Virus record (IMG/VR): IMGVR_UViG_3300025600_000010
Location: 1 to 45,783 of that record
Length of the DNA stretch: 45,783 nucleotides
Strand: one strand, 5' to 3'
DNA from: a virus
Lineage: Duplodnaviria; Caudoviricetes
Shown: positions 30,407-40,577 of the stretch, one piece after another
Position numbering within the stretch: position 1 is the stretch's first letter
Layout of the letters: every line of letters begins with the position of its first letter
Program-made: the position numbers and the translations under genes
Notes under the pieces: generated by a model
Database searches by the model: none
Seen by the model: the letters and a program-made list of their open reading frames with translations, nothing else
What the model was told of the DNA's origin: nothing

Positions 30407-31834
30407 CTATGCGGTTTGAACGTCTGAACCGCCGCCATAATAACGCCAGATAGAAACCGCCATTGTTTCCGTGTCAACTTCATCATCGTGCGAATGTGAC
30501 ATGTCTTCAGCAAACGAACTGTGTTCTTCAACAAAACCTTTCATGTCAATATATGTGGGCAATCGAACACGCCCCGCATATATGTACCATGAAGCTTCAC
30601 GAACGCGCCCAACTTTATCCTCTGGAAACTTATATTCAGCGGGAAGCCATGCAACTGCCGGAAGCCCCTGCAATCTTAATGTTTGCTCTAATGAAGTGCC
30701 GGAAGCCTTGTCTTCAATGAATAACGCTTTAACGCCGTGATCTTTCCACCTATCATAAAACGCTTTTGCGTTCTTCAGCAAATCGGGGAATTCCCATTTT
30801 CCATGCATCTTGTCAATCAAATCAAGGTGCGTTTGCGTTGCGCACCAAAGCTGCAATGATGAATAATCGGCGGTTTTAGTTTTCTTATATGCGGTGTCGG
30901 CTGTTATGAACAACAAGCCTTGCGGTGCTTTCCCAGGCTTCCACAATTCCCCAGGTGCGCAATCAAACCAAGGATTAATCGGAGTGTAAGGGTGCGCTTT
31001 CCACCAATCGGATTTAATTATGTTACCGCCTTCTTTGCGCGGTTCCTGTTGATACTGTGCATAGAAAGTGAATTCATCAATCAGTTTCAGCAATGCCAAA
31101 CTTGCTTCGCTTTTAACTTCCGGCCATAACACAACACCATCTTTATCAATTGCAGGTATCTTAATCCAATGCCAAAGCCCAGGTTCATTTTTTTCTAACC
31201 ATCCTGGCAAGTCTTCAGGGTGGCCGCGCTGTGCAATGATAACTTTCGGCGTATCGTCTTTGTTTGTGCGGCTTGAAAGTGTTTCGGTATACCATCTGTT
31301 GCAACTGTTTCTTACCGTTTCGCTGCGAAAGTCTGAAGCTTTCAACGCATCGTCAATAACAATTGCGCCAGCGAATCCCGGTCTTTTCTGTCCAGCACCA
31401 AAACCGGTAAGCGGCCCATTTACGCCAGCGGCTTTTAAACCGCCGCCTTTCGCTGTATCAAACTTATCTTCGCGCATACGACATTTTTTATTAACAACGT
31501 CATGCGGGAATATTTCTTTATACCAGTCTGACTTTAGCGAATCAAGAATGCCTCTTGACGATTCGCAAGCAATATCTAAGTTGTAACCTGTGTAAATAAA
31601 TTTTGCATCTGGAAACAAGCCTAACGCGTATTCAATAAAATCCTGCGCAATCATCGTTTTACCGTGACGCGGGGGAATGCAAATTCCCAGGTTCTTAGCA
31701 CCGTTCGGCAAAGTTCCTGTCATTAGTTGCATTAAGGCTTTGAATATTACACGGTGAAACCATTTAACGGTTCTTGGTTTGCGCTGCAATAAGCCTTTCG
31801 TTATGAAATAGTTTTCAAGCCCTTTCGGTTGCAT
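30407..31834 (-). CDS. terL: Terminase large subunit
   Basis: PPRHGKT, IVIDD, AQYQQEP, DTA, IEDKASG, HDDEVD. Confidence 0.95.
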   Translation of the reverse strand: MQPKGLENYFITKGLLQRKPRTVKWFHRVIFKALMQLMTGTLPNGAKNLGICIPPRHGKTMIAQDFIEYALGLFPDAKFIYTGYNLDIACESSRGILDSLKSDWYKEIFPHDVVNKKCRMREDKFDTAKGGGLKAAGVNGPLTGFGAGQKRPGFAGAIVIDDALKASDFRSETVRNSCNRWYTETLSSRTNKDDTPKVIIAQRGHPEDLPGWLEKNEPGLWHWIKIPAIDKDGVVLWPEVKSEASLALLKLIDEFTFYAQYQQEPRKEGGNIIKSDWWKAHPYTPINPWFDCAPGELWKPGKAPQGLLFITADTAYKKTKTADYSSLQLWCATQTHLDLIDKMHGKWEFPDLLKNAKAFYDRWKDHGVKALFIEDKASGTSLEQTLRLQGLPAVAWLPAEYKFPEDKVGRVREASWYIYAGRVRLPTYIDMKGFVEEHSSFAEDMSHSHDDEVDTETMAVSIWRYYGGGSDVQTA

Positions 31835-32366
31835 CTTCGCTTTCCAATGCTTCGCGCAAATGTTTCATTGCTTCATCCGGTGTCATAGGTTCAAGCTGTT
31901 TCGGCAAATTGACGTCAATTGTCGGATTGCAAATTTTCAAATGAGCGCAAAGCAATTTGTGATAAGCTTCCTTTGAAGCAAGAGTTAAAACCAAATTACC
32001 AAACTTATCCCATTTCCAGCCCACAATAGCCTTGCGAACGTTTACAGGTAAGTTTGCAATATCTTCAGGGCGCTTTATATTCATCCTTGCAATGTCGGCA
32101 ATGTCATAGAATGCAATCGTTGCAATTTCTTCAAGCACGTTATCAATTTCAATTTTGGTACGCTGTGCGCGTCCATCCATTGCCCATTGAATTGCATTTC
32201 TAATGTGAGGCTTTGACATGAGTTGACCGGCTGAAGCCGGTGCGGTTCTTTCCGAATATCCGGCTGCAATGCAAGCCCTTGTTTGGTCTAAATCTTTCAA
32301 ATATTCTTCAACAAACAAGCGTTGCTTGCCAGTCAGTTTTATGATTCCGTCTTTAACAAGTCCCAT
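31815..32366 (-). CDS. terS: Terminase small subunit
   Basis: LTGKQRLFVEEYLKDLDQTRACIAAGYS; probable start MGLVK after GAGG. Confidence 0.92.
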   Translation of the reverse strand: MGLVKDGIIKLTGKQRLFVEEYLKDLDQTRACIAAGYSERTAPASAGQLMSKPHIRNAIQWAMDGRAQRTKIEIDNVLEEIATIAFYDIADIARMNIKRPEDIANLPVNVRKAIVGWKWDKFGNLVLTLASKEAYHKLLCAHLKICNPTIDVNLPKQLEPMTPDEAMKHLREALESEDATERA

Positions 32367-32426: not shown

Positions 32427-32465
32427 AAAAAGAAAGCCCCAATGCATTCAAGCAAAGGGGCTTTC
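32427..32465 (-). terminator. Intrinsic terminator closing the RNA-array operon
   Basis: Minus strand GAAAGCCCC...GGGGCTTTC followed by TTTTT. Confidence 0.8.
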
Positions 32466-32519
32466 ATAGTTCGGCGGTATGCGCCAGCGTTCGGATGAAA
32501 CGCTATTTGTTGGCGGTTA

Positions 32520-32584: not shown

Positions 32585-32869
32585 CTCGCCCCCCTCAAAA
32601 GCGAACGGTTAAGGCGCTGAAGGCGCACGCCGCCTTGACAGCAAGAATGATTGAAATGCTTTCGGGCCTGGAACGGCCCAGGAACGGCGGCAAAGGCGTG
32701 TTTCTGAATCATTGCGGCTTTGCCCCGTTTGCCGGGAAGATCGGGACACAGGCGGCGCTTGTTGCGCTGCGCAGCGGCTTTGACGGTGCCGCGTGCGCCC
32801 CGATTAAGGCCGGGAAAGGATCATGCAAACATTGATTTCCAGGGGATAATTTATTTGCCCCTTCCCGGC
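32585..32869 (-). ncRNA. GC-rich structured RNA region downstream of the tRNA
   Basis: 12-bp closing stem 32809/32869; 11-bp stem closing a 3-way junction 32740-32804; further stems; mismatches resolve as G-U on the minus strand. Confidence 0.6.
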
Positions 32870-32873
32870 ACAT

Positions 32874-32948
32874 TGGTTACGCTTCTTGGATTTGAACCAA
32901 GGAATGACGGTATCAAAAACCGTTGCCTTATCACTTGGCGAAAGCGCA
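32874..32948 (-). tRNA. tRNA-Gln(UUG), CCA encoded
   Basis: TGCGCTT/AAGCGTA acceptor; GCC/GGC D stem; ACGGT-TTTTGAT-ACCGT anticodon arm; CTTGG-TTCAAAT-CCAAG T arm. Confidence 0.93.
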
Positions 32949-32966: not shown

Positions 32967-33160
32967 TTGTTTGGTGGCGGCTTTCGGCCCCTCGGGATTG
33001 AACCGGGATTCCCTAGGCTGATTGGTAACTAGCGATAGAAAATGGTAATGCGCCCCTTGTGCGCCCATCCTTGCCACATTATTTTGAGCCGCTGTTAGGC
33101 GGCTTGCAAGGTTTCTAGTATCCGCGCCTTTTCTGGCCCTCTTTCGATAACACCAAACAA
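32967..33160 (-). ncRNA. 194-nt multi-branched RNA with a T-loop-like arm (unit E)
   Basis: Perfect 10-bp closing stem TTGTTTGGTG/CACCAAACAA; internal stems; GGTTCAATCC. Confidence 0.65.
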
Positions 33161-33168
33161 ACTGTTTT

Positions 33169-33228
33169 GTTTCAGGTTCCAGCTAAAGATGCTCTGGCTT
33201 TCATTTAATCAATCCGCTGAACTGAAAC
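33169..33228 (-). ncRNA. 60-nt stem-loop RNA (unit D)
   Basis: GTTTCAG..CAGC / GCTG..CTGAAAC. Confidence 0.55.
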
Positions 33229-33239
33229 CTAAATTGTTC

Positions 33240-33296
33240 TTGTCAGCTTCAAGGTTTGCCAAACGTCAAACGTTCAACCTAACTTGAAACCGGCAA
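33240..33296 (-). ncRNA. 57-nt stem-loop RNA (unit C)
   Basis: TTGCCGGTTTCAAG/CTTGAAGCTGACAA, 13 of 14 paired including two G-U. Confidence 0.55.
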
Positions 33297-33309
33297 ACTG
33301 ATTGTTGAA

Positions 33310-33390
33310 TTGCTTTGCTAAAGATTTAAGCGTGTCTCTTGTCATTTAAAGCCCTATCGTCAACCCCGAGGAACTTCTTTAGCAAAGCAA
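33310..33390 (-). ncRNA. 81-nt stem-loop RNA (unit B)
   Basis: Perfect 15-bp inverted repeat TTGCTTTGCTAAAGA/TCTTTAGCAAAGCAA around a 51-nt loop. Confidence 0.6.
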
Positions 33391-33405
33391 ACTGTTTGTT
33401 GAAGC

Positions 33406-33478
33406 GGTTAACGATACGCGGCGGTTATCGTCCTTTGCTTAGAAGAAAGCGGCAACGAACCGCCCCGCACCGTTAACC
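33406..33478 (-). ncRNA. 73-nt long hairpin RNA (unit A)
   Basis: GGTTAACGGTGCG/CGTATCGTTAACC (13 bp, two G-U) plus GGCGGTT/AACCGCC. Confidence 0.6.
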
Positions 33479-33491
33479 AGATGTTACCGGC

Positions 33492-34118
33492 CTATTTCAG
33501 CCGCCAGATTCGCGCCCCTTTCACGCCGTTTTCTTCAACGCCGCGAATGGTGAACTCTTTGGTAATTTCCAGGGTCGCAACGCTGTTGCCTTTGCGATTG
33601 GTGCGCATGATCGTTGCGCCGGTTTCGTCTTTCTTTTCGGTTGCAAACTTGCGCGTTGCGCCGGAAACGGTGCTTGCCAGGCTCTTTGCGGGGTCGGGCC
33701 GGTCTGCGGTTGCCGCGATAAAGAAGGATTGCCCCGCTTCCATCTGCTCGAACGGATAGGCGCTTTTGCGAATCGCGCCGCCTTTGGCAACTGCGGGAAC
33801 AGCAACGCCGGTTTCCAGGGTGAATGTCGGTTTTTCAACCGGTGCCGGTGCTGCGATTTCTTCAAGCTTGGTTCCGTTTGCGGCGGCTTCCTGCGCGGCG
33901 GCAATCGCCTTGACGGTGGCCCTGGTTGCCATTTCTCCGGTTTCGTTGACAAGCGTGGTGTTGACTTCAACTAAACCAGCATCAACAAGCGGCTTGTGAA
34001 TTTCAACGGAAGTATACATGAAACCGCCTTCATTCGTTGCCGTGACGATTGCGGCAAGTACCAGCATTGAAGCGGCAAGCGCCTTGTCCAGTTTCTTCTG
34101 TTCCTTTACAGTTGCCAT
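33492..34118 (-). CDS. 208-aa putative nucleic-acid-binding protein (N-terminal winged-helix-like, C-terminal YPF..M..G.SF domain)
   Basis: AAGGAG SD before MATVKE; GC-rich codons like the capsid gene; function inferred only. Confidence 0.8.
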   Translation of the reverse strand: MATVKEQKKLDKALAASMLVLAAIVTATNEGGFMYTSVEIHKPLVDAGLVEVNTTLVNETGEMATRATVKAIAAAQEAAANGTKLEEIAAPAPVEKPTFTLETGVAVPAVAKGGAIRKSAYPFEQMEAGQSFFIAATADRPDPAKSLASTVSGATRKFATEKKDETGATIMRTNRKGNSVATLEITKEFTIRGVEENGVKGARIWRLK

Positions 34119-34165: not shown

Positions 34166-34194
34166 ACAATACAGAATCTTTAACAGCCTGTCAA
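34166..34194 (-). promoter_or_regulatory. Strong sigma70-type promoter
   Basis: TTGACA-17-TATTGT. Confidence 0.8.
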
Positions 34195-34906: not shown

Positions 34907-35026
34907 CAATTCTCCTTTTCAAAAGGTATGCAAGGAATGTCTTTCTTTTTGCTATGACAAAAGGAATCATTGCAACTCATTTCGCAAACGTGCTGCGTTG
35001 CCTGAACACAACCTGAAACTATACAT
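34907..35026 (-). CDS. 39-aa Cys-rich peptide (MYSFRCV...)
   Basis: GAGG SD; fills the gap between genes. Confidence 0.4.
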
Positions 35027-35108
35027 TCGTCTTCAGCCTCTTTGCAGATTCGCAACCGTTCCAAGATTCACCCTTTCCCCTGGTAAGCCGCCAGGGGTCG
35101 GAAGTCTT

Positions 35109-35336
35109 TTAAACGTCCAATCCGCGATTGCGAAGCCTGTAAAGTTCATTGCTGCGGCGTGTTTCATCTTTTGTGGGGTAAGCGGTTTCAGCGGCAATTA
35201 AAGCGATTCTAGCTTCAGTTAATTTTGCATCAGCTTTGTTGTAAGCTTCAATGTCGGTTCCGGTTTCTGCAACCTTAACCGCCGCCAAAGCTGCGTTGTA
35301 AATCTTTTCAGCATCTTTACGAATTTGGTTTTTCAT
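35109..35336 (-). CDS. Hypothetical protein, 75 aa
   Basis: AAGGGG SD before MKNQIR; has its own promoter. Confidence 0.7.
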   Translation of the reverse strand: MKNQIRKDAEKIYNAALAAVKVAETGTDIEAYNKADAKLTEARIALIAAETAYPTKDETRRSNELYRLRNRGLDV

Positions 35337-35371: not shown

Positions 35372-35400
35372 ACAATACAATAACGAACGCAAACCGTCAA
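35372..35400 (-). promoter_or_regulatory. Sigma70-type promoter (repeated family)
   Basis: TTGACG-17-TATTGT-TGTTTCAACGAAACG. Confidence 0.75.
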
Positions 35401-39619: not shown

Positions 39620-40220
39620 TCCGTCAGCGACAATGTGTAGGATATTCTACACTTGGGGAATATTCTACTATTTTATATTATCAAGGTATCGAATCCCACA
39701 TTACAGGGGTTGACCATTCACGGTAGCTATAACCTTATTTTTCAAGCACTTAGCGTGATCTTTTTCTATACTTTCTAACCTAGACAGTTCATCAAACAAG
39801 AATTTAACATCATTTTTCATTATTTTTCCACTTTCAACGTAATATTTCTGAATGCTTTGTGTTCTGGTTAACATTTTGTGTATCTCCTTTTAGGTCTAAA
39901 TTCTTATATATTACTCGTATATTGATTTTATATTATGTAACTACTTGTTTTTATTCACTTCTTTCATTTCTATCAAATATATTACCAGCAACCCAAAAAT
40001 CACATGTACATTACTCTTAGTATTAGACTTATGAACACTATAATAGTTTTATTATTTGCAAGGTGTCTTTCTAGAGCGTTCGGAACTCAATTTTAATATA
40101 TTGATAGAAAACACATAAAACGTAATGATTTCAAGTACTTATGTAACAGAAGTGCCAATATATATTGCTATAATTTGATAGATTTAATCTTCAGTGCTAT
40201 TAATTTTTTAGTTTAATATT
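39620..40220. other. AT-rich non-coding region, putative replication origin
   Basis: No convincing ORF; 17-bp inverted repeat 39967/40110; three IHF-like sites; near the primase gene. Confidence 0.55.
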
Positions 40221-40224
40221 TGTG

Positions 40225-40253
40225 TTGACTTGTAAAATTTATTTTGATATAAC
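40225..40253 (+). promoter_or_regulatory. Sigma70-type promoter
   Basis: TTGACT-17-TATAAC. Confidence 0.7.
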
Positions 40254-40295
40254 TTTTGTCAGATTGTTAAACTGTTAACTTTTATAGGAGCTAAA

Positions 40296-40577
40296 ATGTA
40301 TCATGAATCGTCTGAAGCAATGAAAGGTTCAAAAAGAAGTCAAGGTTGTACTCCGTTACCTTTTGAAAATTTGCCCGTTGGAAAAAGTTTTATTGTTAAG
40401 TTTGGAATGATGCAAGAGAATTCTTTGCGTGTGGCTGTTTCAACAGCTTCTAAAAAATTTAACAAAAGGTTCAAGTGCATCAAGCATAACGATTTGCAAA
40501 TATTTGAAATTGGCTGTTTACCAGATTTGAAAGTTGAAGCTGAACAGGTTTTTGATTCATCGGATAAAATGTGGTAG
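40296..40577 (+). CDS. Small protein, probable paralogue of the C-terminal domain of 33492..34118
   Basis: AGGAG SD; LPFENLPVGKSFIV...SLRVAVS.ASKKF..RF. Confidence 0.75.
   Translation: MYHESSEAMKGSKRSQGCTPLPFENLPVGKSFIVKFGMMQENSLRVAVSTASKKFNKRFKCIKHNDLQIFEIGCLPDLKVEAEQVFDSSDKMW

Follow-up and report, generated by a model that had tools for sequence, protein, structure and literature searches.

We report here that a gene-free slot in the genome of a compact phage holds unit E, a closed-end branched RNA which is probably a real, apparently conserved orphan RNA module. It belongs with a known kind, the non-decoding RNAs that lie beside phage tRNA genes, and it is no demonstrated new class. As to its function, we tentatively favour that unit E is a stable non-coding RNA that does not decode and whose T-arm would serve as a partial tRNA look-alike, decoying a host protein that recognises tRNAs. 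An earlier note on this DNA had considered a phage-borne tRNA-mimic RNA of a new class. The closed-end module, its T-arm and the lack of a known family bear out the first part of this proposal; the new class is not supported, because neither a distant homolog nor covariation was found and because non-decoding RNAs with a T-arm beside phage tRNA genes are already a known kind.

Genome setting and module array

The window, i.e. the whole stretch of DNA that was analysed, is a virus record of 45,783 bases with direct terminal repeats. CheckV gives a completeness of 50%; yet a single 45.7-kb contig of run X1 spans the unit E region. The gene content (tail sheath, baseplate, portal, terminase, DNA polymerase, primase) is that of a myovirus, and no close relative was found among annotated phages (no more than 35% for terL and 27% for the capsid). 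Between the DUF7303 gene and terS, a 1.1-kb gene-free slot contains eight folded non-tRNA modules and a tRNA-Gln(UUG) gene, in the tandem order A, B, C, D, E, tRNA-Gln(UUG), F, G, H, unit E being the fifth. The features are as follows:

34166..34194, minus strand: sigma-70-like promoter TTGACA-17-TATTGT, predicted transcript start (promoter scan)
33492..34118, minus strand: DUF7303 gene, 208 aa, directly upstream of the array (PF23978, E 2e-56; phrog_7597)
33403..33481, minus strand: sister module A, a long hairpin (z -7.3 on the minus strand, -4.0 on the plus strand)
33308..33392, minus strand: sister module B, with a 15-bp closing stem (z -2.4 minus, -4.3 plus; inverted repeat I6)
33240..33297, minus strand: sister module C, a hairpin (z -3.7)
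33170..33233, minus strand: sister module D, a closed-end hairpin (z -2.0 minus, -0.4 plus)
32967..33160, minus strand: unit E, a closed-end branched non-coding RNA module of 194 nt (terminal stem, minus-strand frame scan, conservation)
32874..32948, minus strand: tRNA-Gln(UUG), the only tRNA of the phage, 18 nt downstream of unit E (ARAGORN; RF00005, 57.1 bits)
32805..32872, minus strand: sister module F (z -3.4)
32738..32804, minus strand: sister module G, a three-way junction (z -2.4; 94%-identical contig in run X4)
32677..32737, minus strand: sister module H, a hairpin (z -3.0; X4 contig as for G)
32428..32468, minus strand: terminator-like hairpin followed by a U-rich run, predicted transcript end (z -7.6)
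31815..32366, minus strand: terminase small subunit gene terS, downstream of the array (PF03592, phrog_51)

The seven sister modules have minus-strand z values from -2.0 to -7.3, unit E being the exception among the eight. The array region as a whole lies 52 kcal/mol under its shuffles, the largest value among 8 segments of about 1 kb (the next is 30; 6 shuffles each). A T-loop was found in none of the sister modules. The array around unit E is a more unusual feature than unit E alone.

Judging from the sequence, one early transcript would start at the 34194 promoter, read across DUF7303 and the whole array, and stop at the hairpin of 32428-32468, which the terminator scan did not list. Similar minus-strand promoters lie at 35400, 37408, 38897 and 39140, which makes five with the one at 34194; these sigma-70-like promoters have the common form TTGAC(A/G) plus TA(T/C)-type and appear to mark repeated early transcription units.

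Some further features of the surroundings were observed. The D-loop of the tRNA-Gln, AAGUGAUAA, carries GA where tRNAs usually carry GG (RF00005 consensus line), which may change how it meets the T-loop. Module D contains a stretch of 31 nt (33198-33228, minus strand) that starts with GTTTCAG, ends with ATGAAAG and has no Rfam match; its ends resemble those of some CRISPR repeats, which would make this stretch a possible repeat mimic. The segment 34400-35400 (minus strand) is the second most stable one relative to shuffles (-30 kcal/mol), and its strong hairpin at 35000-35120 may be another RNA. The region 39700-40340, AT-rich, gene-poor and near the GC-skew minimum, is a candidate replication origin. 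The predicted fold of DUF7303 is confident (mean pLDDT 84) and its N-terminal part is weakly MarR/PadR winged-helix-like. These winged-helix matches are weak, none of them at E of 0.001 or below, and therefore provide no tie to RNA binding; from the model, DUF7303 is possibly a DNA-binding regulator.

Folding of unit E

No open frame covers unit E on the minus strand, and all the elements listed by the earlier note lie on this strand, as do the neighbouring tRNA and genes. From the 5' to the 3' end of the RNA, its parts are:

33151..33160, minus strand: terminal stem, 5' strand, 10 bp (pair probabilities)
33069..33111, minus strand: best-supported inner arm, CCUUGC/GCAAGG around an AGCCGC-CUAACA-GCGGCU hairpin, with a 12-nt A/U-rich bulge (pairing 0.84-1.0)
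33042..33068, minus strand: second inner arm, AUGG/CCAU with a GCGC/GCGC hairpin (pairing 0.6-0.8)
32991..33007, minus strand: T-arm-like element CCCGG-UUCAAUC-CCGAG, with one C-A mismatch or, in a shifted register, a bulged A (T-loop consensus)
32979..32989, minus strand: GGC-CGAAA-GCC hairpin, between the T-arm and the terminal stem (pairing 0.75-0.77)
32967..32976, minus strand: terminal stem, 3' strand, holding CACCA (32976-32972) in paired form (pair probabilities)

The perfect 10-bp terminal stem that had been described by eye, UUGUUUGGUG/CACCAAACAA, is indeed present with a predicted pairing of 0.92-1.0 for 9 of its 10 pairs, and when the flanks are included the helix can be extended by 4 pairs beyond a 4-nt bulge. 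The nested stems described with it were all found on the minus strand. Their predicted pairing is 0.89-0.95 for CCUUGC/GCAAGG, 0.84-1.0 for AGCCGC/GCGGCU, 0.8 for GCGC/GCGC and 0.6-0.72 for AUGG/CCAU; UAGAAA/UUUCUA, with only 0.19-0.29, is weakly supported, and a rival helix ACUAG/CUAGU reaches 0.4. The GGC-CGAAA-GCC hairpin was correctly placed after the T-arm and is also predicted to pair. In the model, the terminal stem and the nested CCUUGC/AGCCGC arm are the only well-supported parts of unit E. The hairpin at 33087-33104 (minus strand) reads GCC GCC UAA with the stop codon inside its loop, which may be compared with the tag-stop hairpin of tmRNA.

The overall folding of unit E is no more stable than chance: on the minus strand the z value is -1.03 and 30 of 200 shuffles are as stable, while the plus strand gives a z value of -1.92 with 6 of 200 shuffles as stable. 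Perfect 10-bp inverted repeats with a span of 150-250 nt turn up in about 15% of the shuffles of the region, and the genome has 10 of them. Both the z value of about -1.0 and this frequency are what would be expected if the fold were a chance product of an intergenic spacer with no RNA unit at all, a reading that we nevertheless hold to be highly improbable in view of the array of well-folded modules with its tRNA, the site at the boundary of unit E, the rarity of the T-loop and the conservation described below.

The T-arm-like element and the paired CACCA

The less expected feature of unit E is its T-arm. The T-loop, GGUUCAAUCC, has 4 of 5 stem pairs and the T-loop consensus is found in a 5-bp stem. 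The consensus GGTTCRANYCC occurs twice genome-wide, in the tRNA-Gln and in unit E, and the mean for the shuffled region is 0.011. With a looser T-loop and at least 4 of 5 stem pairs, four occurrences are found genome-wide, two in the array and two elsewhere, for a shuffled mean of 0.018 (about 0.02 per shuffled kb). The T-arm-like CCCGG-TTCAATC-CCGAG with one mismatch, as reported in the earlier note, is thus present and rare by chance, but its predicted pairing is at most 0.35. We consider it an even bet that the T-arm of unit E forms and matters.

The CACCA is there as well. It is however not a tRNA-type CCA end but a part of the 3' strand of the terminal stem, which the following AACAA then prolongs. 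It sits 14 nt past the T-arm, with no 7-bp acceptor stem between the two; after the T-arm, at most a 4-bp GGCC/GGCC helix can form. When unit E was compared with what a tRNA requires, namely a 7-bp acceptor stem right after the T-arm and a free 3' CCA, neither was found. Since the CACCA is paired and no acceptor stem follows the T-arm, unit E is predicted neither to be charged nor to decode. An alternative fold at -57.4 kcal/mol, within 3.2 kcal/mol of the minimum of -60.6, contains a tRNA-like junction devoid of a D-stem (GGCC/GGCC, an AGAAA loop, AGGC/GCCU and the T-arm) atop the terminal stem. A canonical D-arm with GG in its loop could not be fixed in unit E.

Predicted processing by RNase E

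The 5' end of unit E is preceded by a spacer with a putative cleavage site:

33159..33172, minus strand: A/C-rich spacer ending AG|UUU, predicted RNase E-type site at the 5' end of unit E (RN|WUU match at 33161)

The consensus RN|WUU was taken from PMC5222698. Further matches lie at 33391, 33297, 33233 and 32952-32950. B, C, D, E and the tRNA each have at their 5' end a match with mostly unpaired upstream bases; F, G and H do not. The spacer motif is not enriched in number compared with shuffles (3 clusters versus 1.6, p 0.21), so that it is the position of the sites alone that argues for processing, the module boundaries having been drawn with the sequence already in view. According to the model that we propose, host RNase E would cut AG|UUU-type sites in the A/C-rich spacers and free each module, and the terminal stem would shield both ends of unit E. 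We infer that unit E is probably a real processed RNA.

From unit E it is 18 nt downstream to the tRNA and about 600 nt to terS, and its plus strand folds slightly better than its minus strand. These three facts would suit a cis element that does not exist as a separate RNA, either a folded leader for the processing or stability of the tRNA-Gln precursor or transcript, or a DNA signal before terS (packaging start or origin). We regard such an element as unlikely: unit E is closed by a stem of its own and carries a separate RN|WUU site, the tRNA likewise has its own site, and a leader does not need a T-loop. In addition, folding is clearly better on the minus strand for modules A, C and D, in line with RNA containing G-U pairs, whereas B folds better on the plus strand.

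Conservation and searches for relatives

Relatives of the phage were found in four other runs. No RNA data set was listed among the carriers of this region, a result that is silent on expression. In runs X2 and X3, the contigs over unit E show 0 differences in 166 bases and 0 in 151, respectively; the part covered is the 5' 166 nt, mostly outside the T-arm. Outside unit E, 74 of 916 and 98 of 1293 bases differ (7 listed contigs each), which corresponds to a relative about 92% identical; this comparison rests on the best 8 of 10 and the best 8 of 9 contig records. With the mean rate of change, and one shared 31-mer taken into account, the probability of seeing no change in unit E is about 1e-5 in X2 and 8e-5 in X3; if the best-conserved of the other pieces sets the rate, it is 0.03 and 0.02. 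These values are to be read with the facts that X2 and X3 come from one study and were found via words (a shared 31-mer) from the unit E region itself, and that their unit E contigs have a depth of 2-2.4 and no physical link to the diverged contigs. Taken together, the comparison suggests that the sequence of unit E is under selection. The unit E contigs of X2 and X3 provide no covariation for any of its helices.

In the X3 relative, module A has two changes, one of which preserves a pair while the other breaks one. In X4, which contains a more distant relative, a contig over G and H (32671-32820) is about 94% identical and both its flanks are unrelated, suggesting that modules can be swapped. 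The X4 contigs cover G and H and leave a gap at unit E, a gap that is not evidence of absence.

We then turn to more distant relatives of unit E. None was found by blastn of phages and of plasmids. Three DNA patterns searched in viral_contigs gave 2, 4 and 14 loci, and those examined (2 of 2, 4 of 4 and 8 of 14) are tRNAs, coding sequence or unrelated. Among 80 DUF7303 loci of other phages, there was no relative of unit E and no tRNA by ARAGORN; where the flanking DNA sufficed, the slot after DUF7303 is mostly occupied by conserved or long open frames. The array appears therefore to be lineage-restricted among the loci searched. In these DUF7303 loci, blastn matches to module G lie within terL coding sequence and were discarded as chance. 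No relative was detected in 80 terL loci (from a scan over 22 of 64 parts of the collection; 41 of the 80 were also searched with model R3). R3, a weak model built from one sequence, found none in 49 whole records, 24 loci and the phage's own genome. The metagenome scan recovered only the phage's own record, and the terS scan of genome_contigs found nothing. In 301 Pseudomonadota genomes, for each of which the best 2 candidates were scored, the matches are mainly via the tRNA and none via unit E. In a literature search of partial coverage we found no description of the unit E RNA, and its short motifs are absent from 6 supplementary files of PMC10690425; 3 further files, outside this search, may list it. 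Besides, a structured stretch containing a T-loop was noticed in an unrelated viral contig (L100:1000-1260, plus strand), with no ARAGORN or Rfam call and no match to the unit E model.

Proposed role of unit E

Phage tRNAs are reported to counter tRNA-cleaving defences (PMC11555353). Because an uncharged look-alike beside a tRNA fits such a setting, we prefer, still tentatively, a decoy role: the T-arm of unit E would decoy a host defence protein that attacks or senses tRNAs, and the adjoining tRNA-Gln would replace the cleaved host tRNA. That this is its exact role, with a target of precisely this kind, is a rather doubtful proposition.

A role of unit E that does not depend on the T-arm is almost as likely as the decoy role. 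Unit E would then be a real processed small RNA of the array in which the T-arm is incidental, and another surface, for instance the A/U-rich bulge or the unpaired bases that precede the T-arm, would make it a protein sponge, a regulator acting by base pairing, or an antitoxin or CRISPR-repeat mimic. The evidence from the array, the spacer and the conservation fits this possibility equally well, the 5' 166 nt conserved in X2 and X3 are mostly outside the T-arm, the sister modules have no T-loop, and RNA-based counter-defences are known (PMC3475682, PMC10651486). On the other hand, the T-loop consensus is rare by chance and has a tRNA-like position near the 3' end, and the minus strand has no match to a CRISPR-repeat or antitoxin family. 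We therefore see this as possible, not as the first choice.

The decoy role can be extended to the whole 1.1-kb slot, which would then be an RNA accessory cassette: one early transcript, cut by RNase E to about eight unrelated small RNAs and a tRNA, each a decoy or mimic of a different host RNA-binding or defence protein, with unit E as the tRNA-elbow decoy and founder of an uncatalogued family. In this full form, the proposal is unlikely. Nevertheless, with its one tRNA and with eight folded modules on the same predicted transcript, this compact phage offers a small cassette that could be cloned and tested module by module against tRNA-cleaving or RNA-sensing defences. If the modules were decoys, small phages would carry RNA counter-defences that are wholly missed by annotation. 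The orphan status of unit E and the lack of covariation limit how far its case can be pushed now.

Comparison with known RNA families

A cmscan with all 4227 Rfam families (E at most 10), run on stretches of 1161 and of 205 bases, yielded nothing beyond short matches to unrelated families that stay below threshold. The check that had been recommended with the 6S, YrlA, tmRNA and SRP models yielded no match, hence no strong match to a known family, and at unit E there is no Rfam model match for SRP, RNase P, GOLLD, ROOL or raiA either. Supposed likenesses to the Azoarcus group I intron and to the hairpin ribozyme were dropped, Rfam having given no match.

With 6S RNA (RF00013), unit E shares its length, its closed ends and a GGUUCAA that lies some 38 nt before the 3' end, but the conserved 6S blocks (CUG, UGAGCC, AAGCCUGA, CCCAC) are missing. 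Neither RF00013 nor profiles of 61 6S RNAs matched unit E, and our own model of 39 6S sequences, run with filters off, reached no more than 4 bits anywhere in the region and 1.5 bits inside unit E. When unit E is forced into a 6S-like rod with a central bubble, its energy is -48.2 versus -60.6 kcal/mol, i.e. a cost of 12 kcal/mol. A likeness to E. coli 6S seen by eye was rejected (pairwise p 0.06-0.67; rank 729 among 2280 windows of the genome).

The criteria for bacterial Y RNAs given in PMC4201824 are a Ro60 gene nearby on the same strand, a motif and a length of 80-130 nt. Unit E shares with Y RNAs (YrlA, RF02553; D. radiodurans Yrn1) a long terminal stem with a T-arm and one GNCGAAN(0-1)G motif. 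This motif is near the 5' end in Y RNAs, whereas its sole match in unit E is at position 173 of 194, in the GGC-CGAAA-GCC hairpin; the T-before-D (T-AS-D) module found in the middle of Y RNAs is missing, and unit E is longer than 80-130 nt. RF02553 does not match unit E and the phage genome has 0 matches to Ro60/TROVE (PF05731). The earlier note could not fit unit E to 6S or Y RNA by eye, and the family models, the profiles, the Ro60 search and the position of the motif all agree with it. A very divergent 6S RNA, Yrn1-type Y RNA or T4 RNA C might still be imagined from the size, the closed ends, the short motifs resembling E. coli 6S, the single GNCGAAN(0-1)G and the long stem followed by a T-arm near the 3' end as in D. 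radiodurans Yrn1 (PMC4201824). With every model test negative, no Ro60/TROVE gene and GNCGAAG at the 3' instead of the 5' end, this reading is largely refuted and has only a slender chance of being right.

As for tRNA and tmRNA, ARAGORN at default stringency makes no call at unit E, and RF00005 none there; with a lowered score and the intron option, which had been suggested as a check, it makes 99 noise calls genome-wide, none of them spanning unit E as a unit. Unit E shares with tmRNA (RF00023) a T-arm, in its alternative fold the junction devoid of a D-stem, and a hairpin that carries two Ala codons and, in its loop, a stop codon. All 48 tmRNAs compared start with GGGG and have the acceptor strand straight after the T-arm at their end, and unit E does neither; it also misses the GGAC before the T-arm and is half the size. 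There was no default ARAGORN tmRNA call, no RF00023 match and no match of an nhmmer profile of the 48 tmRNAs on unit E. Its mismatched T-arm and the GCC GCC UAA hairpin, together with the best pairwise p of 0.013, could be taken as traces of a decayed or rearranged tRNA or tmRNA with no present function. We find this very unlikely: that p value is not significant over 48 comparisons (median 0.39), the tmRNA profiles and RF00023 are negative, an acceptor stem cannot be built, and unit E is unchanged in a relative that is about 8% diverged elsewhere. Nor does unit E look like a decayed tRNA with an insertion, the outcome by which the earlier note would have been overturned.

T4 RNA C and RNA D as the closest kind

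T4 RNA C (rnaC, species 1 RNA; 139 nt) and RNA D (rnaD, species 2 RNA; 119 nt) are, like the 194-nt unit E, non-coding modules of tRNA size or larger that lie beside phage tRNA genes and have paired ends. The roles of both are stated to be unknown in PMC3014915 and PMC9697503. RNA C is annotated as a small stable RNA of the tRNA cluster. Together with its six relatives (alignment A6), it folds as a cloverleaf that has a 3' T-arm and is backed by covariation, with two-sided changes at 15 of 36 pairs in the 7 sequences. In this family (L098:1409-1547, minus strand; A6), the D-loop was also seen to hold a long hairpin and the acceptor-like stem to include two U-U mismatches, and there is no Rfam match.

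The conserved RNA C blocks of A6, UCGRUUCGAGGA, GGCCUU..AAAAU, GCGUCAACU and CGUUYCGUACA, were not found in unit E. There is no detectable homology between the two, as 159 of 500 shuffles score as well, and our own rnaC model R2 gave 1.1 bits on unit E, on the T-arm only. In RNA C, which has large arms in place of the decoding arm, the T-arm near the 3' end leads straight into a terminal acceptor-like stem; in unit E, the GAAA hairpin intervenes and the 10-bp stem locks the ends. The setting also differs, since unit E belongs to a 46-kb myovirus with one tRNA, unlike RNA C and RNA D. Placement among phage tRNA genes and a T-arm near the 3' end are nonetheless found in unit E as in RNA C. T4 RNA C is the closest in kind to unit E, which is not a member of this family.
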